NCBI GenBank assembly: GCA_963718525.1
Contig: OY970355.1
Location: forward strand, 2,144,001-2,208,000
Source: Candidatus Dormiibacterota bacterium
Lineage (GTDB): Bacteria > Chloroflexota > Dormibacteria > Aeolococcales > Aeolococcaceae
Length of the DNA: 64,000 bases
Reading direction: 5' to 3'
Shown: positions 33,129-62,408 of the stretch, in pieces
Numbering within the stretch: the first letter of the stretch is position 1
Layout: every line of letters starts with the position of its first letter
Notes under the pieces: generated by a model
Databases searched by the model: none
Told to the model about the DNA's origin: nothing
The model's input: the letters and a program-made list of their open reading frames with translations, nothing else
Translations under genes and position numbers: made by a program

Positions 33129-33202
33129 CGGGGAGTAGCTCAGATGGTTAGAGTACTGGTCTGGGGGACCAGGGGTCGCAGGTTCGAGTCCTGTCTCCCC
33201 GA
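33129..33202 (+). tRNA. tRNA-Pro (anticodon GGG), CCA not encoded
   Basis: CGGGGAG/CTCCCCG acceptor stem; D arm GCTC-AGATGGTTA-GAGT; anticodon arm CTGGT-CTGGGGG-ACCAG; T arm GCAGG-TTCGAGT-CCTGT. Confidence 0.97.
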
Positions 33203-33250
33203 CGGGCGCGCGTCAGAGGGCATTTGCGAGATCAAAAGACGGCCCGTCTT

Positions 33251-33770
33251 CGTACGTTCCGTCGCTGGATTTTGGATTGGCTCACTGTGGGCAATCATCG
33301 CCGACAACAAACTGGCACGTGTCGATGCCGCGTCCGGAAGAGTAACTGCTGCCACCATCACAACACCATATCCAGCCCAGGAAGTCATCAGCGGCTTGGG
33401 GCCAGATGTTTTCATCGTCGAGAGCATCGGCGGGGGGAGTGCTGCTGTCGCGCGCGTCAACCCTGCATCCAATTGCGTGGACGGGCTGAGCGCGCCCTTC
33501 AGCGCCGACGCTGAGAGCGCCACCTTGATAACCAATGGTCCCAGCGGTGTCCACGTCGCATACAGCGTCGGCAAACTTGCCCCGATTGATCCGGCCACCA
33601 TGCAGACCCGCGCCACCACCACCCTGGACCAACCAGGATTACTTAGCCTACCCGTCCTTTGGCTTCGGGTCAGTCTGGTTCCCTACGTTCGGAAACAATA
33701 CCCTCCTACGCGTCAAGCCTCTGGTCCTTGATATAGCGCCAAACGTGAAGCGAGCGGCACACATCGAGGC
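33251..33770 (+). pseudogene. Fragment of a beta-propeller (Vgb-like) protein, frameshifted and lacking its start
   Basis: GSLW...LARVDAASGRV, VARVNPA, IDPAT and FGSVW...LLRV repeats spread over two frames. Confidence 0.4.
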
Positions 33771-33815
33771 AGCCCGAACTGGGCACCGATCCTGTCATCC
33801 ATATCGTTGGTCACA

Positions 33816-34739
33816 TCAGGCGAGGCGGCGGCGAACCCACAAGAAGCAGAACGTGGCTATGAGGAGGGCGAGTCCGACGTATATGGCCGTCTCGTACCAC
33901 TGGAATGGCCAGTAGCGGTCAGCGGGTTGATAGGTGAATCCAATCCGGCGCAGCGCACCAGAACAAGCTCGGGCGCTCGCGCCTGATCCGATAGTGCAGC
34001 TGGCATCCGTCCAATGAGAAAGAACCCAATCATCGGGATGCGGCGGGGTGACCGAACCGGCGACGACCGGCAAGGGGCCGCGGGTCCCCAGCGTAAGAAA
34101 CGTTAGTGGACTCTGAAAATACGGTCGCACCAGCTGGCTGACTACCAGTCGTGCTGCAATGAATCCAGCGAGCGTGGCGGCCATCGCCGGCAGAGTGCGA
34201 CGGATGATTGCACCTAGTGCGACCCCTAGGGTGAAAGCGAAGGCGGCGTAGCCGATCGGGACGATTGCTCGCTCATCGAAGACCCCCGGCACGAAGCGGT
34301 TCATGTTGACCGAATCGATCGGGCTGAACCACCACGTGACCATGAGGCTGAAGAGTGCCGTAACGCCGATGCTCGCCAAGCCGACGACGCCGAGTTTCAC
34401 CGTGAGCCATCGCTCCCGGGTGACGCTCTGCGTCCAGATCAACAAGAAGGTGTTGGTTTCAAGCTCTCGGGCGACGAGCGGGGCACCCCAAAACATTCCG
34501 ATCAGAGCTGGTACGACGATCATGACATCGCCGAGCGCTGATTGGAGGAGGGCGTCGTTGTTGACGAAATTGGCTGTGGCGGTTGCGCAGTTTCCATAGA
34601 CAGCACATGGCCTGACGGTCGTGTCATAGAGGTGCACCAGCTGCGGTTCAGTGGTCGCCAAGACAATCCCTAAGGCCACAAGGAGCCCGAAGACCACTGC
34701 GGCTTGCGTTCGAAACTGGAGCAACGCAAACCGAATCAT
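33816..34739 (-). CDS. ABC-2 type transporter permease
   Basis: FWGAPLVARELETNT, WTQSVTR.RWL, YQPADRYWPFQW.E. Confidence 0.88.
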   Translation of the reverse strand: MIRFALLQFRTQAAVVFGLLVALGIVLATTEPQLVHLYDTTVRPCAVYGNCATATANFVNNDALLQSALGDVMIVVPALIGMFWGAPLVARELETNTFLLIWTQSVTRERWLTVKLGVVGLASIGVTALFSLMVTWWFSPIDSVNMNRFVPGVFDERAIVPIGYAAFAFTLGVALGAIIRRTLPAMAATLAGFIAARLVVSQLVRPYFQSPLTFLTLGTRGPLPVVAGSVTPPHPDDWVLSHWTDASCTIGSGASARACSGALRRIGFTYQPADRYWPFQWYETAIYVGLALLIATFCFLWVRRRLA

Positions 34740-35632
34740 CGAAGGATGCCGATGCCGGATCGACGAGCTTTTTCGGCGCTGCGCGCCCGGCTCATGTATG
34801 CGAGCACGAGATCTTCAACTGTCACAGGCCTGACGGTCCAGGTCGGATCCAGGATCGGTTCCGTGGTTCGCACCAGAAGAACGCTCTGCCTGTCGGTATG
34901 GCTCTCCTCGATGACTTCATTGGTCATCGGGAGAGCCGTGAGGTCTCGGCGACGACCGGAGAGCCGGCAGTGCGACGCCAACAGCTCACCGACATCACCT
35001 GCGATCTGAACGTACGAGGAAGCGAGCACGACCATGTAGTCGCACACCCGTGCAAGGTCAGAGACGAGATGTGAGGAAAGCACAACGCTGATTCCGCGCT
35101 CAGCGACGACTGCCATAAGGGTTTGGAGGAAGTCGCGGCGAGCGAGAGGGTCCAAACTGGCCACCGGTTCATCAAGGATGAGGACTTCAGGGCGTTTTGC
35201 GATCGCAAGGGTGAGAGCAAGCTGAGCCCGCTGACCGCCCGAGAGGGTACCTGCATGCTGGCCTGGGTCAAGGCCGAGTTGTTCTATTTGTCGCTCGGCC
35301 AGGGCGCCGTCCCAATTCGGGTTGAGCATGGCTCCCATCCGAAGGTGATCTGCAACGGAAATACCTGCATACGTTGGGGTTACCTGGGCAACGAAACCAA
35401 CCCGTCCGAGTTGGTTTGGACCATCAGCGGGACGACCGCCGAGTACCGCCACCGTGCCAGAAGTCGGAGAAGCGATACCAACCGCTAGGTGCAACAACGT
35501 TGTTTTGCCAGCGCCATTTGGGCCGACAAGGCCGACGACCTTCCCGGCCGGGATCGACAGCGTGCAGTCGCGGAGTGCCCAATGCCGCCGGTAGCGTTTT
35601 CCCAAGCCACTGGTTTCAAGGACAGCCGTCAT
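34736..35632 (-). CDS. ABC transporter ATP-binding protein (YtrB-like)
   Basis: GPNGAGKTT, LSGGQRAQ, LDEPVASLD, SSH. Confidence 0.94.
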   Translation of the reverse strand: MTAVLETSGLGKRYRRHWALRDCTLSIPAGKVVGLVGPNGAGKTTLLHLAVGIASPTSGTVAVLGGRPADGPNQLGRVGFVAQVTPTYAGISVADHLRMGAMLNPNWDGALAERQIEQLGLDPGQHAGTLSGGQRAQLALTLAIAKRPEVLILDEPVASLDPLARRDFLQTLMAVVAERGISVVLSSHLVSDLARVCDYMVVLASSYVQIAGDVGELLASHCRLSGRRRDLTALPMTNEVIEESHTDRQSVLLVRTTEPILDPTWTVRPVTVEDLVLAYMSRARSAEKARRSGIGILR

Positions 35633-36021
35633 GCCACGCCCTCGGCGAAGCTGTCGCGGAAAGCGGTCCGGTATATCGCCTCAATATCGTCTGCATCCAA
35701 GCCCGCTGAGCGTGCCGAGCGCAGCCACTGCGTCATCGAAGCGAGGAGGCGAGCTTGAGTTGCGGGATTGGTGCGGGACAGGGATGCGATCACGAACGTT
35801 CCCTGACCTGGACGAGGCCGTACGAGGCGCTCGCGTTCGAGATCCCGATATGCCTTCAGAACAGTGTTCGGATTGATTGCCAACTGGCTGACGACTTGCT
35901 GAGCCGTCGGCAACTGGTCCCCGGGCTCTAGGAGCCCGAGACGCATGGCCTGATGAACCTGCTGCACCAGCTGCAGATAGGTGGCTACGCCAGAGGTTGT
36001 GTCGAGCTGAAATTGGATCAT
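35629..36021 (-). CDS. GntR family regulator, YtrA subfamily
   Basis: YLQLVQQV, PGDQLP, INPNTVLKAYRDLE, GQGTFV; heads the ABC operon. Confidence 0.92.
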   Translation of the reverse strand: MIQFQLDTTSGVATYLQLVQQVHQAMRLGLLEPGDQLPTAQQVVSQLAINPNTVLKAYRDLERERLVRPRPGQGTFVIASLSRTNPATQARLLASMTQWLRSARSAGLDADDIEAIYRTAFRDSFAEGVA

Positions 36022-36034
36022 AAAACCTTCTTCA

Positions 36035-36048
36035 ACTAATCTCTTAGT
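36035..36048. promoter_or_regulatory. Palindrome ACTAA-TCTC-TTAGT, candidate YtrA-type operator
   Basis: Inverted repeat 14 bp upstream of the GntR start. Confidence 0.45.
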
Positions 36049-36362
36049 GCAAGCGTATCACGGTCGTGGTTTGACGCATGGCACCCCTGCGCCGTCAGCC
36101 CGTGAATGGCGCGTTGCAGACCATGGCGTGAGGGACTTCAGGGGGGCATATCGCGAACTACCTGCACGGGGCCGGATCGATTGCCCTGACTCATCACGGG
36201 CCGCTCATCGCTTGACTCCCCGGTGCTGGCAGATGAATCAGCGACGGCACGAGCAGTGGCCTAGCTTGGGGAAGCGGTGAATCGGATTCGCTCTGGCGCC
36301 GGAATGAGCAAGGACGAACTCAGCGACTGGTTCAATCTCAGGCAGCCATCGCCGGACTAAAG

Positions 36363-36765
36363 TTGGCAGTCGATGCCCGCACCCGCGTCGCCGCGCTAAT
36401 CAGCGGGGTCGCGCGCTCTTTGCGCGCGCTGAACTGCGCTGATGGTAAGCGAGCATGTGGGGCGACCACTCGCGGGCTCGTGCGCCGAGCGACGGTACTC
36501 CAACAGTGTCGGATCAACCGCGGTGGGCGAGCTGCTGGCTGCCGCGAATGATGTCGGCCAGAAGCGTTTCGTGGCTGTGCCTGCTGCCGCCTCCTCTCGC
36601 GCGAAGCGATCGCACCGCCCACCCGTCCGCGACGAAGTGATCAGTCGACGGCCGCATTGGCGCCCGCGACCGATGCGGCAATCCTGCCCAAGCGACCCCG
36701 GCTTCCTGGGCGGCGGAGCCGTGACGTCGGCCTACAAAACGCTGCTGCGGAGCTCCAGCGCGCAC
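36363..36765 (+). pseudogene. Degenerate PIN-domain toxin gene
   Basis: LAVDA N-terminus and ATDAAIL...DPGFLG C-terminus in broken frames; homologous to 54460-54660. Confidence 0.5.
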
Positions 36766-36862
36766 AGAGCCGGGACCCTAATGATGCTCGGTCCTTACCT
36801 CCGCGCACGTATCGTCGTCGCAACATGCAGGCTAGTTCAGCCGTTTCCAACTTATGGGGATC

Positions 36863-36980
36863 GGTCGTCATTCCAACCATCTCCCGACGAAATGACTCTA
36901 AATCGAAGTCAGCACTCATCGAGAATTGAATGCTGGTCTGGGGGGGCCAGGGGTCGCAGGTTCGAGTCCTGTCTCCCCGA
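36863..36980 (+). repeat. att repeat 1: conserved arm plus tRNA-Pro 3' half (36933-36980; one extra G and an A>G change in the anticodon arm)
   Basis: CTGGTCTGGGGGGGCCAGGGGTCGCAGGTTCGAGTCCTGTCTCCCCGA. Confidence 0.95.
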
Positions 36981-37109
36981 CGGACGCGCAATGCCTCATT
37001 TCGCGACAAGCGGTTGTGCTGTTCGGCATGAGCGACACCGAGCGGCGAAAGACGACAGAGCCTCAGGAGTTGGCAGTTCGGCGTTTCGCTACGCTCCCCG
37101 TATGGGTCG

Positions 37110-37796
37110 ATGCGCGTAAATCCTGATCCCATGGTTGGGTTGACGTGGACGGACGACATCGTCGCGCGTTCGGCGGCCCCCGGCGAGAACGCCCTGCTCT
37201 ACCTCAGCCTGCTGAGCTCTGCTGGCCTCGTGCCCGTCCTGATCACGCCGAAATCATCGACGACGGTCCTTGCCCGCCTTGACGGTCTCGTCGTACCCGG
37301 CGGCCCCGACATTGCACCAGCTCGGTATGGACAGGAGCCGGGACCGCACACGGAGACCTCCATCGAGGACCTGGACGCGCTCGAACTCGAGATCGTGACG
37401 GCAGCTCGTGCTCGCAACCTTCCGATGCTCGGGATATGCCGAGGGCAGCAGGTGCTGAACGTCGCGCTGGGCGGAACGCTACACCAGCACGTCGACCATC
37501 CCCGGTGGGGCGCGGACCCTGCAGCGCCGATTCACGAAGTGCAGATTCTTGAGGACACTTACCTGCGACACATCCTTCGTGTAGACGTAGCAGCGGTGAA
37601 TAGTGGCCACCACCAGGCTGTGGACCGCCTGGCACCATCCCTACACCCGGCCGCCGTCAGCAGTGACGGGTGCGTCGAAGCCCTCGAGGCTCCGGATTTG
37701 CTGCTCCTGGCTGTGCAATGGCACCCCGAAGAGATGCCCGAAGCGCAGAGCTCTCGCCGGCTCGTCGAAGGATTCGCACGATGGATCAAGGGCTGA
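37110..37796 (+). CDS. Gamma-glutamyl-gamma-aminobutyrate hydrolase family (peptidase C26, class I GATase)
   Basis: GGPDIAP, LGICRGQQ, VNSGHHQAV, VQWHPE. Confidence 0.93.
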   Translation: MRVNPDPMVGLTWTDDIVARSAAPGENALLYLSLLSSAGLVPVLITPKSSTTVLARLDGLVVPGGPDIAPARYGQEPGPHTETSIEDLDALELEIVTAARARNLPMLGICRGQQVLNVALGGTLHQHVDHPRWGADPAAPIHEVQILEDTYLRHILRVDVAAVNSGHHQAVDRLAPSLHPAAVSSDGCVEALEAPDLLLLAVQWHPEEMPEAQSSRRLVEGFARWIKG

Positions 37797-38072
37797 CGCA
37801 AGGTCCTGGTTGATGTTCTGTCCTGCAAAACCACTTGTGATTCCAACGCGGAGTTGTCTCTGCAGGTAGGTAGCGTCAAGGCGCCGTCGTGTCGGCCGGC
37901 AGAGGCTCTCCGCGCTTCTCGATCATTGCGAGCTGATACGCGCGGCTAAGCAGATCGAGGTGCATGAACCGCCGCGGGTTTCATAGAGGCGCTGGGGAGT
38001 CCCGACTTCGGTGGAGTCGCGTGCTTGATCCTTTGCCCTCCCAACGGTAAGACTTCGTGTTATCGTCTGCTT

Positions 38073-38333
38073 GTGCGAACGACCGGGACCGTGACGATCT
38101 CTTTGTCGCCAGAGCTCGCGGTCGAAGTCGATCGCCTGGCGCACCAGGAGGGTCGGACACGCAGCGAACTTTTGCGCGAAGCGTTTCGCCAGTATGCGGA
38201 GCGACGCAGACGATGGGACCAGCTTTTTGCGTATGGAGAAGGACGAGCGGCGGCCGGCGCCCTGACTGAAGACACAGTCGCTGCCGCGGTGAAGTCGCGT
38301 CGTCGCCTATCTCGCCGCAAGCTAACACGCTGA
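38073..38333 (+). CDS. Ribbon-helix-helix (CopG) antitoxin
   Basis: TVTISLSPELAVEVDRLA...RTRSELLREAFRQY; abuts the PIN gene. Confidence 0.88.
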   Translation: MRTTGTVTISLSPELAVEVDRLAHQEGRTRSELLREAFRQYAERRRRWDQLFAYGEGRAAAGALTEDTVAAAVKSRRRLSRRKLTR

Positions 38334-38732
38334 GTGCGGATTGTCCTCGACACCAATGTGCTGGCTTCGGCGCTCCACTTTGATGGGCGACCGCGACGCC
38401 TCCTCGAGGACATCCTCCGTGGTGATCACCTGCTGATCATCGGTCCCGCGATCCTCGGCGAGCTTGAGGCTGTACTCGTGAAGACCTGTGGCTGGACAAG
38501 CGATCGGGCTGCCGCGGTGCGAGCCGAGCTCGAGGCGATCGCCGAGGTGGTGACGCCGGTCGAGATCCCCCGCCTCTGCCGGGATCCTGATGACGATCAG
38601 GTCCTTGCCATCGCGGTCGTCGGAGCGGTGGATGCACTTGTTACGGGGGACGGCGATCTGCTCGCGCTCGGCGCGCCCCGCGGTGTGAACATCATGTCAG
38701 TCGCCGACTTCGACGTTCTCGCGAGGGACTGA
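38334..38732 (+). CDS. PIN-domain toxin (VapC-like)
   Basis: IVLDTNVLASA, E.L, CRDPDDDQVL, LVTGDGDLL. Confidence 0.92.
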   Translation: MRIVLDTNVLASALHFDGRPRRLLEDILRGDHLLIIGPAILGELEAVLVKTCGWTSDRAAAVRAELEAIAEVVTPVEIPRLCRDPDDDQVLAIAVVGAVDALVTGDGDLLALGAPRGVNIMSVADFDVLARD

Positions 38733-38809
38733 GAAAGGTAGTCCACCGCGTATCCAACACCACGCCTCAAGTCCACAGTGTTCCAACGGATTCCATCACC
38801 CGTGCACTC

Positions 38810-38925
38810 GTCCTGACTCCAACCATTTCGCGACGAATGCCCTCAAACTCGAACTCAATCTGAATCGGGAGACGAGGACTAATCTGGGGGACCAGGGGTC
38901 GCAGGTTCGAGTCCTGTCTCCCCGA
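38810..38925 (+). repeat. att repeat 2: conserved arm plus tRNA-Pro 3' half (identity from 38883)
   Basis: TCTGGGGGACCAGGGGTCGCAGGTTCGAGTCCTGTCTCCCCGA identical to the tRNA. Confidence 0.95.
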
Positions 38926-39128
38926 CGGACGCGCAATTTGAGTTCGCAGCAAGCGGTTGTGCGATGTGTGGGGCGCCCATTGGCCGACGGGGTGTGGTGG
39001 TCTAACCAGGAATTATCACTTTTCCTGCAAAAGGCATCAATCCCTACAGTTGGTGCCGGATACCGCGCTCATAGCAAGAGATTCTGGCAGGCAAGCGCAT
39101 ACACAGCGCTTACAGTTTCATCGGGGTG

Positions 39129-40527
39129 GGGTCAAGTCCCCGGTAGTGGTGTGAATTCGGTGGAGTTCTCACAACGTCGGTGAACTACGCGACCAGTCCC
39201 TCCGTGAGTGGGTTGGTGAGCAAGGGCGGACCGTCGGGGTGCAAAACGCGAGCCATCGACTGCTGACTGAAGTGACGGCGGCCGTCCTGCCACTCGTCGT
39301 GCTGGTCCTGGAGCACCGCGGTGAACAGCCGCAGCAGTGAGGCGCTGTTGGGGAAGATGCCCACCACCTTGGCGCGACGATCGAGCTCGGCGTTGACGCG
39401 CTCGATGGCATTGGTCGAAGAGATCGAGCGCCAGTGGTCGACCGGGAAGTCCAGATAGGCGAGCACATCGGCCTCAGCGGCGCGGAGCTTGGCAGCCACA
39501 GTTGGGAAGCGTGGCTCCAAGACGCTGAGCGCGTGGTTCACGGCGTCACGGGAAGTCTCGCGAGTGGGCTGCAGGAAGATCGACTTCACCACCGCGAGCA
39601 CCGCCGGCGCGTGCAGCTTGGGGACCGCGCTGGCCACGTTGCGGAGGAAGTGCACCTTGCAGCGCTGCCAGGTCGCGCCGGCGAACACCTGGGACAAGGC
39701 ACTGCGCAGCCCTTCGTGGGCGTCGGAGATGACCAGCTGTACGCCGCTCAGCCCGCGCCGGGCCAGGCTGCGGCAGAACTCCAGCCAGAAGGCCTCGGTC
39801 TCGCTGGCACCAATGGCGAGGCCGAGCACGCTCTTCTCGCCGGTGTCGCGCACGCCCACCGCCACCACCGCCGCCTGGCTGACGATGCGGGCGCCCTGAC
39901 GCACCTTCTCGTACGTGGCGTCGAACCACACGTACGGGTACGGCTCATCGAGGGGGCGCTCCCGGAACTCGGCGAGCTCCTCGTCGAGCAGGGCGCAGAT
40001 CCTGCTCACCTCGCTGCGACTGATGCTGCAGCCGCCCAGCGCAGCCATGAGATCGTCGACCTTGCGAGTGCTGATGCCGAGCACGTAGGCCTCCTGGACC
40101 GCCGCCAGCAGGGCCCGATCAATACGCCGTCGCGGCTCGAGCAAGGTCGGGAAGAAGCTCCCCGTGCGCAGCCTGGGGATCTGCAGCTCGAGGCGTCCCG
40201 AGCCGGTGTCGAGGATCCGCTCCCGATAGCCGTTGCGGTACGTGGTGCGCGTTGAAGCTCGCTCGTGCGGGCCGGCGCCGATCTGGGTGGACGCCTCGGC
40301 TTCGATCAAGCGCTGCATAGCGTGTTCGAGGACGCGCCGCAACACGTCCGTGTCTGCGCCCTGGAGTTGCTCGAGCAGTGCCGGGGGCATCATCCTGTTC
40401 TGGGCCATCGTGGGTCTCCTGGTTTGGGTAAGAGCTTCCAAGAGAACTCCGCGGTGGCCTTCTTTGTCTACCTCGTCGGCAGCGCTGGGGTCACCCCGGA
40501 TTTACACCACACTACGGGACATCACTC
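39129..40527 (-). mobile_element. IS256 family insertion sequence
   Basis: Imperfect terminal IRs GGGTCAAGTCCCCGGTAGTGGTGTGAAT / GAGTGATGTCCCGTAGTGTGGTGTAAAT flank the transposase; no target duplication seen. Confidence 0.88.
39185..40408 (-). CDS. IS256 family (mutator) transposase
   Basis: YRNGYR, GISTRKV, YVWFDATY, LVISDAHEGL, WQRCKVHFLRN, STNAIERVN. Confidence 0.97.
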   Translation of the reverse strand: MAQNRMMPPALLEQLQGADTDVLRRVLEHAMQRLIEAEASTQIGAGPHERASTRTTYRNGYRERILDTGSGRLELQIPRLRTGSFFPTLLEPRRRIDRALLAAVQEAYVLGISTRKVDDLMAALGGCSISRSEVSRICALLDEELAEFRERPLDEPYPYVWFDATYEKVRQGARIVSQAAVVAVGVRDTGEKSVLGLAIGASETEAFWLEFCRSLARRGLSGVQLVISDAHEGLRSALSQVFAGATWQRCKVHFLRNVASAVPKLHAPAVLAVVKSIFLQPTRETSRDAVNHALSVLEPRFPTVAAKLRAAEADVLAYLDFPVDHWRSISSTNAIERVNAELDRRAKVVGIFPNSASLLRLFTAVLQDQHDEWQDGRRHFSQQSMARVLHPDGPPLLTNPLTEGLVA

Positions 40528-40543
40528 AACGCGCTCGCCTCGT

Positions 40544-40666
40544 TGTAGAGGTCCGGTAGATACTTGCCACCGCAGGTCAACGAGGTGCTTGACGGCGCGC
40601 AGCGCGTCCGCCTAGTGCTTGACACAGCCGGCCTCCCTCCAGTCCGCTGGGACTGAGCGCCATCGG
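40544..40666 (+). mobile_element. Remnant IS481-like left end (copy in unit 3)
   Basis: TGT terminus and RTRCTTG-type repeats; homologous to 44459-44590. Confidence 0.5.
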
Positions 40667-40856
40667 GTTCTTTGAAGTACAGCCGTAGGAGCATCTCGAC
40701 CTCGTTGATCCGAGCTCCTCTCGCGTGGTGAAACTCCCGAACTCGAAAGTCGTGCTGGCACCCTCCGCGTTCGCATGCTGGCAGCCTCCCGGTCCCCAGG
40801 ATCGCGGACTACATTGGCTGCGGAAGATCGAAGACTACTCTCACATAGAGGTGACC

Positions 40857-41321
40857 ATGAACGAGTTTGACATCGTGACTGTCATTGACCGGCCCGCGGA
40901 TCAAGTCTTTGCGTTTCTCGTGGACGTCGACAAGGCTGCTGACTGGAATCCCCAAGTGATCGAGGCGCGGCAGACGAGCGATGGACCGCTCGGCGTGGGC
41001 AGCAGACTTCTATATGTTGGAAGGTTCCTGGGACGCCGTTTCGAATCGGTCTCGGAATGTACTGACTACACCCCCAACGAAAGGTTCAGTACCAAGACGA
41101 CCTCCGGACCTTTCCACCTCGAAATCGACAACACTCTGAGTTCTGTCGATGGCGGAACCAGGCTGGCAACCGTCTATCGGGGCGAGAGTCGGGGCTTTTT
41201 CAAGCTGGCGGAGCCGGTCGTCGTGCGCTTGACCAAGAAACAGTTCGAAACCGCGACAGAGAACTTGAAGGCGCTGATTGAGACCGAGGCCACGGAAACG
41301 ATCCACGAGCTTTCGCGATAG
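40857..41321 (+). CDS. SRPBCC / polyketide cyclase family protein
   Basis: IDRPADQVFAFL.D...W.P, GPLGVGS, GGTRL, LKALIE. Confidence 0.88.
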   Translation: MNEFDIVTVIDRPADQVFAFLVDVDKAADWNPQVIEARQTSDGPLGVGSRLLYVGRFLGRRFESVSECTDYTPNERFSTKTTSGPFHLEIDNTLSSVDGGTRLATVYRGESRGFFKLAEPVVVRLTKKQFETATENLKALIETEATETIHELSR

Positions 41322-41882
41322 CCACTGGGTCTGCCCCTAAGCTGACACCCGCTCATTGGGGCGCCCGTCGCGGCGCACGAGTGGATAGCCTTACAGAGCC
41401 GTTGTGCCTACGGAGCATGTGCCGCGCGAGTCGGCACCACGCAAATGCACGAGGTTCTCGGTGGTCGTCACTGGTCCTGAACCGGCTTTCGAGGAAGGCC
41501 GAGGGCATTGGCGGGGTCTCGAGGTCGGCGGGACCCCATAAGGATGGCAACACCCCGGACGTCGTGGTGGCAGCCCCATTCCCCTCGCCGGGTGCCTGAC
41601 TAAAGTGGAGGAGTGCGCCGGGAACCAGTGCCTTGGATTCGTCGCTATCGTCGCGACCGGCGGCAACGACTGCGAGATCATTTGATGCACCCGCCGGTCA
41701 ACAGCGCCCTGAGATCGGCGTGACCGAGTTCTGGCTTCCGACCCGACTTGCGCCACGAAAGCATCCGAGCCAGTTCAGTCGTCCGTGGCGGCAGCTGGAG
41801 ATCAACGTGGTAGCCCTCCGCCTGCATCACGAGCCCGAATTCTCACCGCCGTCAACCGAGCGTGCCCGAAGTCGATGACCAC

Positions 41883-52507: not shown

Positions 52508-52519
52508 GGTTCTGAGGAG

Positions 52520-52981: not shown

Positions 52982-53025
52982 GTCAGCATTCTGACATATA
53001 GTGGTCGAGTGTCAGAAAACTGACA
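52980..53025. promoter_or_regulatory. Two TGTCAG-N4-CTGACA palindromes, MarR-type operators
   Basis: At 52981-52996 and 53010-53025, between divergent marR and VOC genes. Confidence 0.8.
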
Positions 53026-53045
53026 TACTATGAGGAGCCAAACAC

Positions 53046-53414: not shown

Positions 53415-54264
53415 GGCGAGCGCCCTAGTTTTCGGGGCCACGGGTTCCCTCGGCCGCCACGTTCTGGACGGGCTTGTCGCCCGAGAAACCGCACCCGAGA
53501 TGATCACCGCGGTCGGTCGTAACGAGTCGCGCCTAGCGGAACTTGCCGCGGCCGGGTTCGGCACGGCAGCCATCGATCTGTCAGATTCGAACGGTATCGC
53601 GAAACTCGTCTCCAGACACTCCGACATGGTCCTGATTTCGGGCAGCGACTCGGATCGTCTCTCCCAGCACATGTCCGTAATCCAGGCGGCGAAGAACGCC
53701 GATGCCCGCCACGTCTATTACACCAGCGGCGTTCGGGCCGACGACAGCCGGTTCGAGATCAATGCCGACCACAAAGCAACTGAAGATGCCCTTATCGCTT
53801 CCGGGGTGACCTATACGATTCTCCGGAACACGTGGTACATCGAGAACTACATTCCGTCCTTGGCTTGGCCTCGTTTCACCGGCGTTCTCGCCGCGGCCGT
53901 CGGTGACGCCGTCGTTGCGGCAGCCAGCCGGCGTGACCTTGCGGAGGCGTTGGCCATCGTCGTCACCACGGATGGGCACGACAACGTCACATATAGTCTC
54001 TCGGGCGACACGAACTTCAGCTACGCGGAAATTGCGGAAGCGATGTCGGTGGTCCTTGAACGGGACGTCACGTACCTCCCGGTCACCCCTGATGAGTTGC
54101 GAGTGACGCTCACCGGTTTCGGCATGAACGAGGAACTGACCAGCCGCCTGGTAGGCCTTGATGAAACTATCGCTGCTGGAGCATTCTCCCGAGTCGGTGA
54201 CGACCTCGCCCGTCTTCTCGGCCGGCCGACAACGGGCCTCGTCGAAGGGCTGACAGAGGAGTGA
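53401..54264 (+). CDS. NmrA-like NAD(P)H-binding protein
   Basis: FGATGSLG, YYTS, DHKATE, TILRNTWY.EN, SRRDLAEA. Confidence 0.9.
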   Translation: MTVPEASALVFGATGSLGRHVLDGLVARETAPEMITAVGRNESRLAELAAAGFGTAAIDLSDSNGIAKLVSRHSDMVLISGSDSDRLSQHMSVIQAAKNADARHVYYTSGVRADDSRFEINADHKATEDALIASGVTYTILRNTWYIENYIPSLAWPRFTGVLAAAVGDAVVAAASRRDLAEALAIVVTTDGHDNVTYSLSGDTNFSYAEIAEAMSVVLERDVTYLPVTPDELRVTLTGFGMNEELTSRLVGLDETIAAGAFSRVGDDLARLLGRPTTGLVEGLTEE

Positions 54265-54660: not shown

Positions 54661-54773
54661 GCCACAGGGCTGGGACCCGAATGATGCGCGCCGCGTCGTC
54701 GATGCTTACCTCCGTACACGTATCGCCGTGGCAAGGTCCAGTGTAGTTCGGCCGTTTCCAAACACGGGGATCA

Positions 54774-54889
54774 GTCGTTATTCAAACCAATTCGCCACAA
54801 AATCACTCTAAATCGAACTCAGCACGTGGCGAGAAATAAGGACTAGTCTGGGGGACCAGGGGTCGCAGGTTCGAGTCCTGTCTCCCCGA
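54774..54889 (+). repeat. att repeat 4: conserved arm plus tRNA-Pro 3' half (identity from 54846)
   Basis: GTCTGGGGGACCAGGGGTCGCAGGTTCGAGTCCTGTCTCCCCGA. Confidence 0.95.
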
Positions 54890-55225
54890 TTCGCAGCCCA
54901 TTGCACTGCGGTGCAGCCCATTCCACCGGATTGCAGTGGATTCCAAGTTGCCGGGATCCATTCTGCGGGGACTAGTACTTCTTAGCGGACTCAGTGCCTT
55001 CCTGCGATGCCATGCGGTTCGCTGCGGTCGACACCCCAGAGTCTCCAGTTTTGCCGGGGCGGTTCCGTGTTGAATATGAGCAGGCGTCAGCCCTGCCCTC
55101 CGTCTCCGGCGGGACTTGCTCGGACCAGTTGCGCCCGCGTGGATAATGCGCTCGTGAGCACAAGGCTCGAGCCCGCGCGCCTGATGGTGTCCGAGCCGTC
55201 TCGACGCCGTGGCCGGTGAGGCACG

Positions 55226-55987
55226 ATGGCCTTGACCGCCAACCAATTGGAGCAGTTCGTCGAGGAGGGCTTTGTCAAGCTCGAACGGGCGTTTCCCGAG
55301 AACGTTGGACAGCAGTGTCGACGGGAGCTCTGGGACGCCATCGGGTGTGACCCATCCGACCGATCGACTTGGACTCAGCCGTTCATTCGCCTTGACAGCT
55401 TCGGCACAGCTGCCTTCCGAGCCGCAGCAAACACGCCTCCGCTACTGGAGGCCTTCGATCAACTCGTCGGCGTGGGGCGCTGGATCGTATTGACCGGTCT
55501 CGGAACCTTTCCTCTTCGCTTTCCCAGCACAGAAGCGCCACTGGAGGCCGGGTGGCATGTGGAAGCCAGCTTTGCGGGGGCTCAACGCGAAATGCGCGTC
55601 AATCTGCGCTCCCGTGGTCGCGCGCTGCTCATGTTGTTCCTCTTCTCCGAGGTAAGCTCCGATGACGCGCCGACACAGGTGCGCGTCGGTTCACATCTCG
55701 ATGTTCCGCAGTTCTTGAAGTCAGCGGGGGACGATGGTGTGGCATGGATGACACTGTGCCAACAGGTAGTTCCGGCGTCGGCCGGCCGTCCCATCGAGCT
55801 GGCCACGGGCTCGCTCGGAGACGTGTATCTCTGCCATCCGTTTCTCGTGCACACGGGGACTGCTCATCGTGGCCATACGCCACGGTTCATGGCCCAACCA
55901 CCGCTCAGATCCATCGAGCCGCTTGACCTGGACTCGCCGAATCCGACTCCAGTCGAGCGAGCGGTCATCATCGGTCGGGACCGCTGA
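55226..55987 (+). CDS. Phytanoyl-CoA dioxygenase (PhyH) family 2OG-Fe(II) oxygenase
   Basis: EQFVEEGFV, GWHVE, T.VRVGSH, GDVYLCHPFLVH. Confidence 0.87.
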   Translation: MALTANQLEQFVEEGFVKLERAFPENVGQQCRRELWDAIGCDPSDRSTWTQPFIRLDSFGTAAFRAAANTPPLLEAFDQLVGVGRWIVLTGLGTFPLRFPSTEAPLEAGWHVEASFAGAQREMRVNLRSRGRALLMLFLFSEVSSDDAPTQVRVGSHLDVPQFLKSAGDDGVAWMTLCQQVVPASAGRPIELATGSLGDVYLCHPFLVHTGTAHRGHTPRFMAQPPLRSIEPLDLDSPNPTPVERAVIIGRDR

Positions 55988-56289
55988 CCCGGCCGGCGGT
56001 TCGGGTCGCCTCCAAATTCCGCGGGCCTACGCCACGCGGTGCAGCCATTCTGCCCAATGCACCGCCTTCCAGCCACTAGCGTGGTCGCTCGGCACCTTGT
56101 CCGACCTCATGGCCAACGCCGCTGAGCTGCCCAACAACCGTGTAACTCGGGCACCGCAGGTGGCTGAGCGGTCGGTCGTTCGCTCCGCTCACCGTCGCCA
56201 GAGCCCGAATCGCCCCATGTGGCAAGCGAGCCACGGCACATCCGCCTCGCTCACCCCAGCGTGCCATTAACACACCAGAGCGGATCGAC

Positions 56290-58429
56290 CTAGCTGACCG
56301 CGCTGCCGGCGAGCACCTGGTGCGACACAGGAACTGTGGCGCGGAGTGTCGTCCCCCGCCCCACGGTCGATTCGACCTGAAGGTTCCCCCCGAGGGCATC
56401 GAGGCGGTCTTCCATATTGGTCAGCCCATTGCCGCGAGCGGTAGTGCTGACGACAAAGCCGCGCCCGTCATCGTTGACCTCGACAGTGAGCAGATCACCG
56501 TCCTGCCTTAGGCGCACGACGGCTCTCGATGCCTTCGCGTACTTCTGAATGTTCTGAAGGGCTTCGAGAATGCAGAAGTACAGTGCGGCCTCGGTGTCTT
56601 GTGGATAGCGTCCGATGCCATCGATTTCGATGGTGATCGGCAGCGTGGCCTTGCGCGCCTGGGCTTGGAGGGCGGTGGGCAGGCCCTTCTCAGCCAGCAG
56701 CGGGGGATAGATGCCGCGGGCCAGATCGCGGAGCGTCTCCAATGCTTCATCCGCATCGCCTTTGAGTTGCTCAAGAGTTGTGATCGCCTTCTTCGGATCT
56801 TTCGTCAGCAACATCTCGACGAGGCCGAGCTTGACCTTGATCGCCACCAAGTATTGCTGGGCTCCATCGTGGAGGTCGCGCTCCAGCTTGCGGCGTTCAT
56901 GATCTTGTGCAGCCACGAGCCTCTGCCGGGAGCCTCGGAGGTCCACAAGTCGGGCTTGCAAATCAGCGGTGAGGCCGACATTCTTGAGGACGAGACCCGC
57001 CTGATGGGCGAGGTCGTCCATGAGCTTGATCTCGATCGGCGAGAGCGATTCGCCGCGACGCTTGGTCACTGTCAACGCACCCAGCACGTCGCCCTGATGG
57101 CGAACCAGCAGTGATCGATCCGCATTGGGGATCGAGAGTTCTCCAGCGCCGTTCAAGTGCAACACCGAGGGTATTGCGGCATCGAGCGGGAAGGCTGCAG
57201 CACGACGCAACTCATCGCCGCTGCGCAGCCAGATCTCGGAGAGTTCAGCAGCGGTGCCTTCCGCGAGGACCCGGGCCATACGCGGGAGCACCTCGTCGCT
57301 GGCGTACAACTCGGCAACCCGCTCGGAGAACTGTGAGAGGACTTCGTACGGAGTAGCTCGCTTCCCGTAGACGAGCAGATTCGCAACTCGCTGTACCCGC
57401 TCCCGAACCGGCTGGAAGCCAATGGCCACTATGGCGGTGGCGAGAATGGACAGGGCCAGGTTGGGTTTGCCGCCACTGCCGACGAGAGTGCCGATGCCGA
57501 CTGCGATGCCGACGTATACCGCAGTGATGAAGACAGCCAGTGAGCCGTACACGATGCTCCGGCCGATGAAGACGTCGAGGTCGTAGAGGCCGTACCTCAT
57601 CACAGCGAGCCCGATTGTGAGCGGGAGGGCGACTACAAGCCCAAAGTCTAAGGTGTAGTTGTCTATGGCAGTCCCCGCATTGGAGAGGAGCGGCGTGAAC
57701 GTCAAGATGAAGATTCCCAAGGCAGTGGCAGCCACATAGGCAAACCAGCGCATTTGGCGCCGTTCAACGCCCCGCGACCGGCGGAAGCGCACCACCACCG
57801 CCGTTACTAGAATTACGAAAATCAGCAGGAACAGCAGGCTTTGAAAGCCGCCGTTAATGTTGGTCAGGCTATCGAGTGCGGGTATCGCGAGAGGGTTGGT
57901 CAGACTGGGCAGCCGCGGCGATAACTGCGCCGATTGCGTTGAAACCATCGTCGATGCAGTCAGGACAACGGCGGTGGTAAGCCCCACCCAGGCGGCCCAT
58001 CGCCAGCGCGGTCCGGGCAGTATCCGTCCGTTAGGGAAGACGAAGACTACGAAGAGCAGCAACAAGGCACCAATACCAAAGCCGTTGTTGTACACCCAGG
58101 CTGCCCATGTCACCCAAGCGCGAGGTGATGCGCCGGATAGCAACCCGCGCATCGCGATGAAGTCGGCGAAAAGGCAGATTGAGTCAGCCACAGCAATGGC
58201 CAGCAGCAACCAACCAATCGAGTTCCGGGGGCGGCGGATCGCGATCAGCACGCCGAGGATGGCGGTGATGGGCGCACCGAGGAAATAGCCCAACCGCGCG
58301 GTTCTCACCGAGTTCGATCGCCTTCCAGTCGAGCGGCAACAGGACCAGGCTGGCAACCACCAGTCCGAGGCAGAACACCCCCACACACCAGGCGAGCGGA
58401 ACGGCCCTGCGCTCCCAGCGTGCTGTCAT
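56290..58429 (-). CDS. Membrane sensor histidine kinase paralogous to 41883-44012, apparent +1 frameshift at ~58314
   Basis: ERRKLERDLHDGAQQYL, EALQNIQKYA, DDGRGF; N-terminal ...LDWKAI lies in another frame from ATG 58429. Confidence 0.9.
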
Positions 58430-58844
58430 GAGGCCACAGTACCCGCGGGCCTGATGGGCTGTCGATGGTGCAACCGCCCCCCGCGAAAGGGTGGCTGCAC
58501 TCCTCGCTCTCGAGAGGCGGCGCGATTTCAGCGACGGTGAGTTTAGAAACCAAGACCCCGCGCCCGCCTCCGAGCAGCGCCAACGCAGCCTTGATGCGGT
58601 TCGCGTCAGGCCCACCCTCAGGGCCGTCACTGTGCCGCCGTGTGAGGAATCCCTCGCTCACCCTGGCGTACAACTTTCACACCAGAACTCGGGACGGCAG
58701 TGGAGCTAGCGGCGCATCCTACAAGTGCGTAGGCCACAGGCTGGTCGTAGCCGATGAACCGCGAGGTGGGCGTGAGGCTCCAGCCGTTGTCGGCAAGCCC
58801 GGCCCTGGCCCCTTCGCCGAGGCCAGGGTCGGACTCATTCGGAT

Positions 58845-59783
58845 CTAAGGTGTGACGAGCGTGAAGATGCCCCCATCTACGGAGATGCCGTTGCCGTTGC
58901 CAGTCGCCGCAAAACCGGTCGCCGTCGGGGCGAGGCCCTCGAAAGCGAACAGGTACAAGGGATTGCCGTCATAGCGCACCTGCGTGCCGTTCGGCGTGTG
59001 CAGGGTGCCGAGATTCGCCGGCGAAAGCCCACCCGACACCCCGGGCGTGCCGCTGGTAAGCATGCCGGGCCAGGCGCGTGCACATGCGCCCGTGCACGCG
59101 CTGTGTCCAGGGGTGTCCTTTGTGTAGCTATACACCGGGAAGTCGATCCACCCGATGCCGGTAAACATAGGCGTGGCGAGGACCTTCGTGCCGCCGATCT
59201 TCGTGGTCGTCAGCGTGCCGGCCCACGGCAGAGCCCGCCCCGAAGGCGCCATCAGGTTCCAGACGCCGTGCCAGGGCGGGAGGCTGGGCTCGTCCCATCC
59301 CTCACCCGTGACCTCGCCGGGACCCTGGTCGAACAGGTACAGCGGGTGTCCGGCATAGGTGACCTGGTCACCAACGCCAGCTCGCCACACCGTGCCGAGC
59401 AGCTGCTGCGACGCTCCGGAACCGGCGATTGGAGTGCCGGTCGTCGTAATGGCGGGCCACTCGGCGTTCGTGTCGTTTGACGGTCCGGTGCACAGGAGCG
59501 TTCCGACCGGAGTGACCACTGGCTTGCTCGTGCAGCCGAACGTCCTGCCGTGGTCGCTCGTGATGAAGTAGAGGCTGAAGCCAGCGTACGGGCCCGAGCC
59601 GACGACCAGCGCCCTGCCGAAGGCGGTGGGCGCCGTGGTGATGACGGTTCCCGTTGCCGCCGAGGCGGTTCCCGCGAAAACCGGGACACTAGCGAGACTG
59701 ACGACAAGGGCGGCGCCGGCGACGATCCCACGCAGCCCCGGCCGTACGCCGGGAGACTGGTCGGATCCAAAGTGGGTGTTCAT
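58845..59783 (-). CDS. Secreted protein with repeated Yx(FWY)xxD motifs (Lipoprotein_15 / COG4315-like)
   Basis: Signal peptide; QVTYAGHPLYLFD, VYSYTKD, CTGACARAWP, QVRYDGNPLYLF. Confidence 0.85.
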   Translation of the reverse strand: MNTHFGSDQSPGVRPGLRGIVAGAALVVSLASVPVFAGTASAATGTVITTAPTAFGRALVVGSGPYAGFSLYFITSDHGRTFGCTSKPVVTPVGTLLCTGPSNDTNAEWPAITTTGTPIAGSGASQQLLGTVWRAGVGDQVTYAGHPLYLFDQGPGEVTGEGWDEPSLPPWHGVWNLMAPSGRALPWAGTLTTTKIGGTKVLATPMFTGIGWIDFPVYSYTKDTPGHSACTGACARAWPGMLTSGTPGVSGGLSPANLGTLHTPNGTQVRYDGNPLYLFAFEGLAPTATGFAATGNGNGISVDGGIFTLVTP

Positions 59784-60369: not shown

Positions 60370-61003
60370 ATGCCCTTGAGCGATGGTTCGGGCTTACCGC
60401 TGGCGGACCACCAACGGAGGCGATCGTTTCGCCGTCGGCTCACCCTGGTTGCGGGATTTGGCATCTGTGTAGTCAGTCTCTTGGTTGCCTGCTCCCCTGA
60501 GGCCTCCCACGTAGTTGCTACGCACACACCCACAGCAGTCGAGGCGCCTGTGAGCAGCCCTAGCAGCGCCCAGCCGCTATCGCCTCAGACGGCGGTTATG
60601 CGCCTTCAATGTGCCGGTGTCCTCGTAGATGGCAGGTGGGATATAGCAAGTTCGGATCCGTACGTGGCGGGCCGCAGACTTCTCAAACTCATCAACAGAC
60701 GGCCCGGCCCAGAATTGGATATACAGCGCCAGGGTGTATGCACATGACCCCGGAATGTTGTTGGAGCCGGCGGTAGGGAGTTCTCCGTACCCTCCTTCGC
60801 TTTGGAGCGGAACGCAGGAGAACGTCGCAGTCGCAGCCGGGCACCATGTTCGCGTTCCGATCACGTGGCCGTATGTCGACTCTCAGGGACAGCACCTTCC
60901 GAGCGCCACGTACTACGTGGTGGTCTCCGGAACTGTCACGCCGCCGGGCTACCCTGCAATGGTGAGCACTTGCACCATCGGTTTACGACAAGCGAGAGGC
61001 TAG
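60370..61003 (+). pseudogene. Possible broken lipoprotein-like gene
   Basis: Lipobox-like LLVAC followed by a Pro/Ser-rich linker; continues in a second frame (60734-61003). Confidence 0.3.
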
Positions 61004-61171
61004 ACCGTCACACGAGCGTCCTGTCACCAGATCCAGGGGCTTCAGATGCTCGACCCGCCCAACAGCCGCACAGAATGCCCCAAAGTCAAGAGCGGAGGGG
61101 AGCGAAGCAACAGGCAGTACGCGCGGGTGTGTGTTGGCGGAATTCCAATGGATTCCAACGCACCTGGTCTA

Positions 61172-61287
61172 GTCGTCATGCCAACCAATTCGCCACAAAA
61201 CCACGCTAAATCGAATTCAGCGCTCATCGGGAAATGAGGACTAGTCTGGGGGACCAGGGGTCGCAGGTTCGAGTCCTGTCTCCCCGA
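61172..61287 (+). repeat. att repeat 5: conserved arm plus tRNA-Pro 3' half (identity from 61244)
   Basis: GTCTGGGGGACCAGGGGTCGCAGGTTCGAGTCCTGTCTCCCCGACGG. Confidence 0.95.
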
Positions 61288-61409
61288 CGGACGCCAAATT
61301 TGATCTCAGTGCAGGGATTTCCAGTGCCATCCACTGGGCTCAATCCTGCGGGGACTAGCCCAAATTTCTCGAATAATGACTTTTCCAGCAAAACCACATT
61401 CTCTCCAGC

Positions 61410-62408
61410 ATGGCCAGCACGATCGACACCCATCTGAAGCCGTTGCGGCGGCGCGCTCCCGCCAGCCCGCCGCCGACCAGCAGGAGGGTCTCCATCGACC
61501 GCTGCGTCGATCTGATGGCGACGCGCTATCAGTGGGCCGACACCACCCGGGTCAACGCTCGGGACTACCTCGCCGGCGGCCGGTTCCTCGCCTTCTGTCA
61601 GGCGCGGGGCATCGAAACCGTCGACCAGCTCAGTAACGAAGCGATCCTCGACTTCGTCGGTGACGTCCGTGACCGCGTGGGGGTCAGCCGCAACACACTG
61701 CGTGGCTACCGCAATTACTTCAGACGGCTTGCAGATTTCTGCGCCACCACTCCAGGGTTTGCGAATCACTCCTTCACGTCCGGCGCCGTTCCGAGTGCTC
61801 CCAAGGAACCACGGCGAAGGCGCTCAGACGCGCTGACCCTGAGCGAAGAGCAGGCGCTCGTTGCCGCCCTCGTCGGACATCGTCGTGACAGTCTCATCGT
61901 CCGTGTCCTGTTGGCGTGCGGTCTGCGCGTCAATGAGCTCTGCGCGCTGTGCGTCGATGACGTGAAGCTCGCGGCGCGGCCGCCGCGGGTGCTCGTCACA
62001 AAGGCCCAGGGTGACATCACCAAGAGTGGCGTCGATCGCCAGGTGAGCTTCCGGCACCCGTATGCGAAGGAGCTCCTCCGAGACCTCGCGGCGTGGATCG
62101 AACGATACCGGCCGGAGTCTCGCCACCCCGATCTCTTCATTTCCGAACGACGCTCATCAGGTGAGCCGCTCACCACGACGGCAGTGCAGCAGATGGTGCA
62201 GCGAGCTGCGCGGAGCGCGGGACTTCGGCCCATCCATCCACATCTCCTTCGGCGTACATGGGCGACGCGCCTTGCCGACGCTGGCGCCACGGTGACGGAC
62301 CTCATGCAACAGGCTGGGTGGAGCAGCATCGAGATGGTGACCGTGTACTACGCCGGTTCTGAAGAGCGCGCGATCGAGCGAGTCGCCGGTCTGCGCGTCG
62401 AGGGCTGA
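61410..62408 (+). CDS. Tyrosine recombinase / integrase
   Basis: Catalytic R (GLRVNE), K (TKSG), HxxR (HLLR), W (AGW) and Y (VYY); SAM-like N-terminal domain; starts 122 bp after att repeat 5. Confidence 0.93.
   Translation: MASTIDTHLKPLRRRAPASPPPTSRRVSIDRCVDLMATRYQWADTTRVNARDYLAGGRFLAFCQARGIETVDQLSNEAILDFVGDVRDRVGVSRNTLRGYRNYFRRLADFCATTPGFANHSFTSGAVPSAPKEPRRRRSDALTLSEEQALVAALVGHRRDSLIVRVLLACGLRVNELCALCVDDVKLAARPPRVLVTKAQGDITKSGVDRQVSFRHPYAKELLRDLAAWIERYRPESRHPDLFISERRSSGEPLTTTAVQQMVQRAARSAGLRPIHPHLLRRTWATRLADAGATVTDLMQQAGWSSIEMVTVYYAGSEERAIERVAGLRVEG

Follow-up and report, generated by a model that had tools for sequence, protein, structure and literature searches.

The window analysed here is a 64-kb stretch (G000:C1:2144001-2208000) of a Candidatus Dormibacterota metagenome-assembled genome (MAG), our host genome G000, which consists of a single contig of 3,336,189 bp; the system in question is an array of cargo-bearing units stacked behind a tRNA-Pro(GGG) gene and bounded by partial copies of it (Table 1). 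The tRNA-Pro is the sole tRNA gene that ARAGORN finds in the window. The 3' half of this gene, which reaches from anticodon loop to discriminator, constitutes a core that recurs downstream: a 38-nucleotide (nt) query drawn from it has six plus-strand matches with at most two mismatches in the window, ending at 33202, 36980, 38925, 44248, 54889 and 61287, and a shuffle control gave no match in 100 trials. The direct repeats that a preliminary description of this DNA had placed at these ends are thereby upheld. Start-to-start spacings between successive cores are 3778, 1945, 5323, 10641 and 6398 bp.

Each of the five extra cores is preceded by a conserved arm, here called the P arm, which the true tRNA-Pro lacks. 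An arm with this distribution had been described before as about 70 bp long; its presence and absence were correctly given, but its conserved stretch is about 115-125 bp. It contains three phased ATTCCA repeats and the block TAGTCGTCATTCCAACCA, every position of which is kept at 90% or more in an arm consensus built from 67 distinct junctions. Near-perfect repetition begins at the anticodon loop (5' edge) and ends with the discriminator; cores are nearly perfect, and arm identity among copies goes down to 75-90%. Junctions as wholes resemble one another at 75-98% over 120-400 bp. The arm of R1 is a variant whose distal part resembles R4 alone (the two share 397 nt at 77%), and that of R5 is 98% identical to an arm in a relative (G025:C60), where a class-A cassette (see below) replaces int downstream. 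For the same 67 junctions, alifold predicts no pairs in the arm and places pairs only inside the core, unlike the tRNA's own stems. The last ~15 nt of the arms look like the 5' acceptor strand of a tRNA. An Rfam scan returned the tRNA-Pro plus a marginal D-armless tRNA at R3 (44189-44248, 29.3 bits), with no other match.

On the far side of the core lies a second conserved element, the P' module, which occurs in three forms. Class A, non-coding and about 195-315 bp long, follows R2, R3, R7, R10 and, in part, R1 and R11; class B follows R4 and R6, with a shorter form after R8 and R9; an int-proximal form follows R5. All three have the motifs GCGGGGACTAG and GAATnATGACTTTTCC in common, so that every junction resembles a complete attP, with P arm, core and P' arm. 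No conserved open reading frame (ORF), such as an excisionase, was found in class-A P' modules; that of unit 3 is non-coding, is split by an IS256 insertion sequence (IS) and picks up again at 40534-40648. IS256 copies sit at the equal place of a class-A P' module in unit 3 of G000 and directly after the tRNA of G029 (G029:C1:315390-317000), in a contiguous alignment at 86%, reflecting either a target preference or a common left end.

The array extends well beyond the window, as the preliminary description had suggested checking. A whole-genome search revealed six further arm-plus-core junctions, with cores ending at genome positions 2212894, 2219513, 2239794, 2241293, 2247716 and 2330564, together with a partial arm at 2324354-2324443. 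All 11 junctions and the tRNA lie on the plus strand within 2177129-2330564, and the arm profile, run over the entire 3.34-Mb genome, finds no copy outside this cluster (12 arms, the partial one included). Measured between the tRNA and its last core, the array takes up 153 kb (4.6% of the genome), divided into units of 3.8, 1.9, 5.3, 10.6, 6.4, 7.6, 6.6, 20.3, 1.5, 6.4 and 82.8 kb; the last of these is syntenic with pieces of four cassettes of a relative, G034. The partial arm is joined to a fossil, about 45 residues of an integrase N-terminus (2324436-2324660, found with a hidden Markov model (HMM) of the integrase family; 85% identity over 26 aligned residues), from which core and P' have been deleted: what remains of a second int-bearing cassette. 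Among the cores, the distal R8, R9 and R11 have three to four mismatches. This age gradient of core mismatches, present in G000, is absent in G034, and a candidate conserved chromosomal flank bounding the array downstream gave patchy matches only.

Across this 153 kb, a six-frame search with PF00589 returned a single match, the ORF at 61410-62408, and serine recombinases (PF00239) gave none. The units in front of it are indeed integrase-less and share a common P arm and core, bearing out their earlier description as discrete, integrase-less cassettes with shared ends; the recombinase had also been taken to stand alone after the last repeat, yet six more junctions follow it, and it sits inside the array, in unit 6. 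TrwC relaxases (PF08751) have no match in the entire G000 genome, FtsK is represented there by its chromosomal copy only, and a PHROG screen of 126 array proteins (five border-spanning gene calls excluded) found no phage structural family among the 25 families listed, the commonest of 69.

The product of this gene, Int, carries R173, K205, H278, R281, W304 and Y313 invariant or at 90% or more in a 15-sequence alignment of its relatives. It is gap-free against five orthologs, with dN/dS of 0.11-0.13, and is under purifying selection. Pfam recognises its catalytic domain only; an AlphaFold model (pLDDT 77.5) comprises a helical core-binding domain (residues 29-113) and a catalytic domain (144-327), and because residues 1-27 are of low confidence in the model and missing in two homologs, Int is predicted to lack a lambda-type N-terminal arm-binding domain. 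Its closest solved structures by Foldseek are XerA, Tn1549 Int, IntI4 and Cre. It scores far under the NCBIfam cut-offs for XerA, XerC/D and IntI, reaching 36.8 bits with the IntI model TIGR02249 (cut-off 265) and 16.9 with PRK15417 (cut-off 435). The family is small, with 16 proteins at E <= 1e-10 in a large protein collection. A paralog (40% identical) lies about 200 bp after a tRNA-Val(GAC) gene at locus L090 (G019:C1:110001-116000), with one tRNA 3'-half repeat 5.5-6.6 kb further on (in G019, G022 and G006); they form an ordinary small single element, without an array.

The arm is a genus-wide feature. Among genomes that are all MAGs, 61-92% complete and one per species, an 18-mer arm motif (at most two mismatches) has 166 matches in 34 of the 42 genomes of the genus, against one match for the reversed control; counts reach 20, in G034, and are, for example, 13 in G062 and 10 each in G000, G031 and G015. 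A 120-nt arm query matched none of 299 genomes sampled from 170 other genera of the phylum. Queried with arm plus core, all 36 same-genus genomes scored gave matches (eight of them at tRNA-core level only), as did 23 of 24 genomes of a neighbouring family, at core level only; this tally includes the unpublished G039, G048 and G056. Several genomes of the neighbouring family (f2), one of them the unpublished G039, have two to six armless core-level matches to the tRNA half, which may be islands with other arms at the same tRNA. Beyond the MAGs, 69 of 80 metagenome loci carry true arms; none of the arm-bearing contigs has a terminal overlap, and the metagenome contigs holding 80 arms, 416 kb altogether, contain no int homolog. 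In viral contigs, all ten matches to the 18-mer were chance matches (30-33% GC, about 20 nt fitting the arm profile); Int relatives in viral contigs are 25-33% identical.

Int itself is far rarer than the arm. Close orthologs (87-100% identical) occur in 8 of the 42 genus genomes, and PF00589 has no match in the arrays of G034 (contig C13, 17 arm matches in 187 kb), G031 (C9, 10 in 40 kb), G022 (C16) or G019 (tRNA plus three cassettes), a distribution at odds with the earlier picture of a platform served by one resident integrase. Over 1.155 Mb of array DNA, the int-family HMM recovers three int orthologs, one 45-residue fossil and one weak match.

Where int does occur in relatives, its surroundings differ from those in G000. 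In seven of eight other loci a spacing of 123 bp separates it from the true tRNA-Pro upstream, and arms are absent within 10 kb (at L045 no core was found), and core, P' and int of G000 are 85-86% identical to these tRNA-adjacent loci. Behind int, these loci share a block at 92-98% identity that encodes an 881-residue TrwC relaxase-helicase; TrwC follows int in L046, G008 and G016. The G008 element also encodes a ParA-like protein, ParB, an ArdC-like protein and a 364-residue TraG/AAA_10-like ATPase, and is closed, 90.6 kb away from the tRNA, by the same P arm and core. Given its place beside the true tRNA together with TrwC or other genes typical of such elements, int appears to belong elsewhere to an integrative and conjugative or integrative and mobilizable element (ICE/IME), and to be an orphan in G000. 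Since identity between genomes is 93-99% for int and its downstream block, against 79-87% for the flanks, this helper element, too, moves between species. Other TrwC genes lie within a few kilobases of other tyrosine recombinases in G016, G031 and G034 (for example G016:C11:492812/494768 and G034:C8:85905/90748), and int-TrwC elements appear to be the common mobile element type of the genus.

Comparing six arrays cassette by cassette, we find whole cassettes exchanged between species. The second cassette of G022 equals the fifth of G031 (97.4% over 6.1 kb plus 93.5% over 0.4 kb) and the first of G019 equals the second of G031 (96.6% over 2.57 kb), where the der flanks of the same genome pairs are 79.9% and 80.3% identical; in windowed alignments, identity stays at 90-100% from left core to right core and is about 35% within 50 bp past the right core. 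The der flank of G034 is present twice, at the end of C13 and at C14:71752-78764, with arm repeats after each; a real duplication or the merging of two strains in the MAG could account for this.

Neighbours are not conserved. Among 101 junctions with at least 800 nt of cargo on either side (91 distinct, with ten exact-duplicate pairs), 19 junction-pair rows, 16 of them independent, share at least 90% identity over at least 500 nt on one side, and for every one of these 16 blastn (E <= 1e-5) detects no similarity on the opposite side; apart from duplicates, matches on both sides, even of 300 nt, occur in no pair. Neither content nor order is therefore fixed, neighbours assorting independently at the junctions, and the earlier suggestion that relatives be checked for a fixed array is answered in the negative. 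A check at the level of reads used Logan contigs of four runs (X1-X4, one study) on positions 32500-52400: these contigs end at the repeated core, one of 3801 nt being exactly 33176-36976, and the few arm-arm joints among them have sides of 27-30 nt plus extra letters and possibly come from related cassettes of other strains. G029, considered as a clean empty site, was rejected: although it lacks the arm motif, its tRNA is followed by class-A-like sequence, an IS256 copy and cassette-like cargo.

We think it probable that the locus consists of non-autonomous integrative cassettes arrayed in tandem at tRNA-Pro(GGG), akin to cis-mobilizable elements (CIMEs) and furnished with the att arms of an ICE/IME family. 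Each cassette consists of a core, a P' arm (class A, B or int-type), ordinary cargo of 1-80 kb and a P arm of about 120 bp. That the same P arm and core close a relative's int-TrwC element, and that the P' motifs recur in the int-proximal arm, suggests that the cassettes bear the attP ends of a tRNA-Pro-specific ICE/IME family; judging from their sequence, they keep these ends without the family's integrase, relaxase or transfer genes.

How such cassettes might move can be sketched. Anticodon-stem inverted repeats around a 7-nt loop are the usual crossover layout of tyrosine recombinases, and the family's Xer-like enzyme would cross over in the anticodon loop, between these repeats. Recombination of core with core would release a circle of one cassette or more, bearing a complete attP, and this circle would re-insert by recombining with the tRNA or with any core; arrays would thus grow by accretion and their order be reshuffled, and transfer between species would ride on the ICE, by joint excision, or on another vehicle. 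On such joint excision or transfer with a helper, the cassette-level identity between species bears indirectly. A cassette landing beside the tRNA would provide the tRNA's 3' half, which may explain why cores stay nearly perfect as arms drift. In G000, five int-less cassettes separate the tRNA from int, which elsewhere abuts the tRNA, a layout that fits their insertion after the int unit had arrived. The formation of circles, the catalysis of these events by Int and its action in trans are inferred rather than observed. More speculatively, CTAGTC-like motifs, which occur in the P arm, in P' and at the core, may serve Int as additional sites, and the phased ATTCCA repeats may bind an accessory protein.

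Several observations weigh against this interpretation. Int lacks an arm-binding domain with which to read the conserved 120-bp arm, and most array-bearing genomes have no close int (8 of 42 do, at 61-92% completeness), G034 and G031 holding only relatives at 29-31% identity. Neither an excision circle nor an empty site was seen among the short Logan contigs, which break at the core. G000 has no relaxase, and transfer from it is hence unlikely today. Unit 1 shows no recognisable P' module after the tRNA-Pro, and its cargo is part of a larger unit in G004. Lastly, the distal array is partly syntenic with G034 and contains a broken junction with its int fossil, so some units do decay in place.

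Could the exchange proceed with no site-specific recombinase at all, the conserved junctions of 160-400 bp serving as portable homology for swaps after DNA uptake? Genomes in which searches found no close int keep their arrays and share cassettes; the junctions are 75-98% alike over 120-400 bp, and identity breakpoints resolve no finer than the junction, all of which homologous recombination would accommodate. We nevertheless judge it unlikely: the near-perfect block is confined to the interval from anticodon loop to discriminator, as expected of a loop crossover combined with selection for a working tRNA, and the arms, diverging to 75-85%, make a poor RecA substrate. The same arm and core, moreover, close an int-TrwC element, and a cognate Int is present and under purifying selection.

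It is quite unlikely that these are ordinary tandem islands decaying in place, each having lost its own integrase or ICE backbone by deletion and now being fixed. Decay has clearly left traces, namely the 45-residue fossil joined to a truncated arm (2324354-2324660), the three to four mismatches in distal cores R8, R9 and R11, the IS elements inserted in P' modules, the synteny of the 82.8-kb unit with pieces of four G034 cassettes and the missing relaxase of G000. Yet decayed int, which had earlier been proposed as something to look for in each unit, amounts to one fossil in the 11 units of G000, and there is no int-family match in the arrays of G034 C13, G031 C9, G022 C16 and G019 or in the 416 kb of metagenome contigs (G016 C20 has one weak match). 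Nor would units fixed in place be expected to include cassettes 96-97% identical between species with 80% identical flanks, unconserved neighbours in 16 of 16 pairs, or an arm motif retained in 166 copies.

A further alternative accepts site-specific recombination and assigns the reading of the arms to another recombinase or accessory protein, encoded elsewhere or on transient elements, in place of the int at 61410. The missing arm-binding domain of Int, the three phased ATTCCA repeats, the spread of the arm motif (34 of 42 genomes) relative to int (8 of 42) and the several other int-TrwC pairs in relatives speak for such a protein; we still hold it very unlikely, given that int always stands directly after this core (that of the tRNA or of R5), that the 40% paralog serves tRNA-Val with a single repeat, whereby site choice appears to follow int lineage, and that no conserved ORF was found in P' modules. 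Finally, the likelihood of a true integron, or of arm and core forming a self-spreading repeat of the kind of a miniature inverted-repeat transposable element (MITE) or short interspersed element (SINE), is next to nil, for although co-oriented repeats separate unrelated cargo as in integrons, Int reaches 36.8 bits with TIGR02249 where 265 are required, the arm has no conserved hairpin, and all 12 arm copies fall in one co-oriented cluster downstream of the tRNA, with none elsewhere in 3.34 Mb.

The cargo itself is diverse: cassettes range from 1.1 to 83 kb, are multi-gene, use both strands and bring their own GntR, TetR, MarR, ECF-sigma and Crp regulators. Pfam confirms the contents listed for the five units in the preliminary description, which had missed the IS256/Mutator element of unit 3 and the IS481-type element of unit 4. 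Unit 1 cargo is 95% identical to G004:C1:44133-47665 (flank, 80.7%), where it lies about 1 kb behind another arm and core, away from the tRNA. Parts of unit 4 cargo are 93-95% identical in G024, G063, G011 and G032. Unit 5 cargo matches metagenome contig L149 at 98.7% over 5.1 kb (L149 in turn matches G025:C60 at 99.8%), a version that has another left junction and about 6 kb of extra sequence. Outside the window, unit 6 encodes a Crp-like regulator, an RpoD-like sigma factor and also an aldehyde dehydrogenase before it ends at R6 (genome position 2212894); the int-bearing cassette thus also holds a full-length RpoD-like sigma-70 (366 residues, regions 1.1 to 4; genome 2209088-2210188) beside the Crp-like regulator.

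Further IS256 copies in the G000 genome are 90-100% identical to that of unit 3, and two other IS481-type copies in the distal array, at genome positions 2282276 and 2314328, are 99.7-99.8% identical to that of unit 4 (100% in a second comparison). The latter is polymorphic: contigs of X1, X2 and X4 join 44761 to 45797, skipping 1035 bp, with 8 nt fitting both sides, the one clear empty-site form among the Logan contigs. In unit 2, the RHH/PIN (VapBC-like) pair at 38025-38732 lies directly left of a P arm, and homologs (82-90%) are likewise placed in G031 C9, G034 C13 and G026 C3; such pairs at arms may be array stabilisers, like the toxin-antitoxin (TA) cassettes of large integrons.

Table 1. 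Features of the tRNA-Pro array in the 64-kb window (window coordinates)
Feature	Position	Strand	Evidence or remark
tRNA-Pro(GGG) anchor (attB/attL)	33129-33203	+	ARAGORN; Rfam tRNA 63.1 bits
Unit 1 cargo: GntR regulator, ABC ATPase, ABC-2 permease	33204-36820	- (all genes)	Pfam
Junction R1, P arm and core	36821-36981	+	nhmmer arm profile; core with 1 mismatch
Unit 2 cargo: peptidase C26 (37140-37796), RHH antitoxin (38025-38333), PIN toxin (38334-38732)	36982-38767		Pfam
Junction R2, P arm and core	38768-38926	+	Arm profile, core match
Class-A P' module, left end of unit 3	38927-39118	+	82% identical to post-R3 module
IS256/Mutator-family insertion sequence	39130-40526	-	Transposase 39185-40408, PF00872, E 2e-127
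Unit 3 cargo: SRPBCC/polyketide-cyclase-like protein, GAF-HisKA_3 sensor kinase	40851-44012	+	Pfam
Junction R3, P arm and core	44087-44249	+	Arm profile, core match
Class-A P' module, left end of unit 4	44250-44563	+	
IS481-type insertion sequence	44762-45796	+	rve transposase 44951-45802, PF13683/PF00665
Unit 4 cargo: SnoaL, DUF427, ECF sigma, SDR (two), AhpC, TetR, MarR, NmrA-like	45966-54264		Pfam
Junction R4, P arm and core	54730-54890	+	Arm profile, core match
Class-B P' module, left end of unit 5	54891-54976	+	81% identical to post-R6 module
Unit 5 cargo: PhyH-like dioxygenase (weak match), HisKA_3 kinase, Lipoprotein_15 repeat protein	55226-59783		Pfam
Junction R5, P arm and core	61127-61288	+	Arm profile, core match
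Int-proximal P' arm	61289-61409	+	Alignment
Tyrosine recombinase (Int), 332 amino acids, first gene of unit 6	61410-62408	+	PF00589, E 1e-27
Start of unit 6 cargo: ACT-domain fragment, ORF of 90 amino acids	62830-64000		Pfam, gene calls

Among known systems, the closest concept is the CIME with ICE-CIME accretion, and the closest described case the ssrA islands of Dehalococcoides. The concept is known from work on ICESt1 and ICESt3 of Streptococcus thermophilus. Like CIMEs, the units of the array are flanked by the att sites of an ICE/IME, have no recombinase, relaxase or transfer genes of their own (the sole PF00589 match being that of unit 6) and stand in tandem at the chromosomal site of such an element. 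They depart from CIMEs in number, with 11 junctions in G000 and as many as 20 arm motifs in one genome, and in distribution, with 34 of 42 genus genomes involved, about 20 arm motifs per int, unconserved neighbours and often no ICE or int in the genome.

CIMEs are also cited by McMurdie et al. 2011 (PMC3146451), who propose as such 15 Dehalococcoides ssrA islands that lack an integration module, about half of the islands keeping theirs. Those islands, too, stand in tandem downstream of a small-RNA gene, with 3'-end repeats as bounds and a conserved motif before each repeat; they differ in that their recombinase, DsiB, is of the serine type, their repeat measures 20 bp and their motif 15 bp (PMC3146451). 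Here, the recombinase is of the tyrosine type, the core measures 45 nt and the arm about 120 bp, and nearly all units are int-less.

The tycheposons of Prochlorococcus also employ a tyrosine recombinase at tRNA genes, successive insertions displacing older ones and leaving scattered partial tRNAs; in the accessible text of their report, islands comprise one or two elements per genome with fragmented integrases as remnants, and int-less units with conserved arms are not described there (bioRxiv 10.1101/2020.12.28.424599). The helper element here is relaxase-bearing (TrwC). Xer-dependent modules, the integrative mobile elements exploiting Xer (IMEX) and pdif modules, use host XerC/D at dif-like 28-bp sites. 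They resemble the present cassettes as recombinase-less cargo bounded by the sites of a two-domain tyrosine recombinase that acts in trans; here, unlike in them, a long-armed tRNA half serves as the site, and the candidate enzyme belongs to an element and occurs sporadically.

The resemblance to integrons is one of behaviour. As in integrons and clusters of attC sites lacking an integrase (CALINs) as described in PMC11389934, co-oriented units of unrelated cargo share a standard site, integrase-less arrays are common, order is shuffled and TA modules lie inside. Unlike in integrons, the recombinase is not IntI, the junctions are double-strand, attP-like and built on a tRNA half with no attC fold, no fixed attI or Pc stands beside int (which is in unit 6 here and beside the tRNA elsewhere), and cassettes are multi-gene, on both strands and with their own regulators. 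The array is not an integron; every defining integron feature examined fails. Of the integron-like gene-capture platform proposed earlier, then, the behaviour of the array survives, and a fixed platform with one resident integrase does not.

A literature search on Dormibacter and integrases found nothing on this system among the entries listed, and one on tandem int-less islands gave ICE/IME literature. What is unusual about the array is the ratio of some 166 arm motifs to eight int genes, the standardised long arms, the absence of conserved neighbours and a size of up to ~190 kb. We tentatively raise the possibility, somewhat short of an even chance in our estimation, that it represents a second, independent cassette-array architecture: a genus-wide library of multi-gene cassettes with attP-like junctions of about 400 bp, stacked at one tRNA gene (to ~190 kb, ~5% of the genome) and reshuffled and exchanged between species by a sporadic, ICE-borne, Xer-like integrase acting in trans, with a working tRNA 3' half as quality control. 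Since the sites (arm, core and P'), a candidate enzyme and many natural cassette variants are defined, the idea is directly testable. An uncultured soil phylum may build a large flexible region of its genome from ICE-derived, integrase-less cassettes. Reshuffled arrays of recombinase-less cassettes with standard ends are known mainly from integrons, and to see arrays behave alike in populations with att sites that are double-strand and derived from a tRNA suggests that such an architecture can arise more than once.

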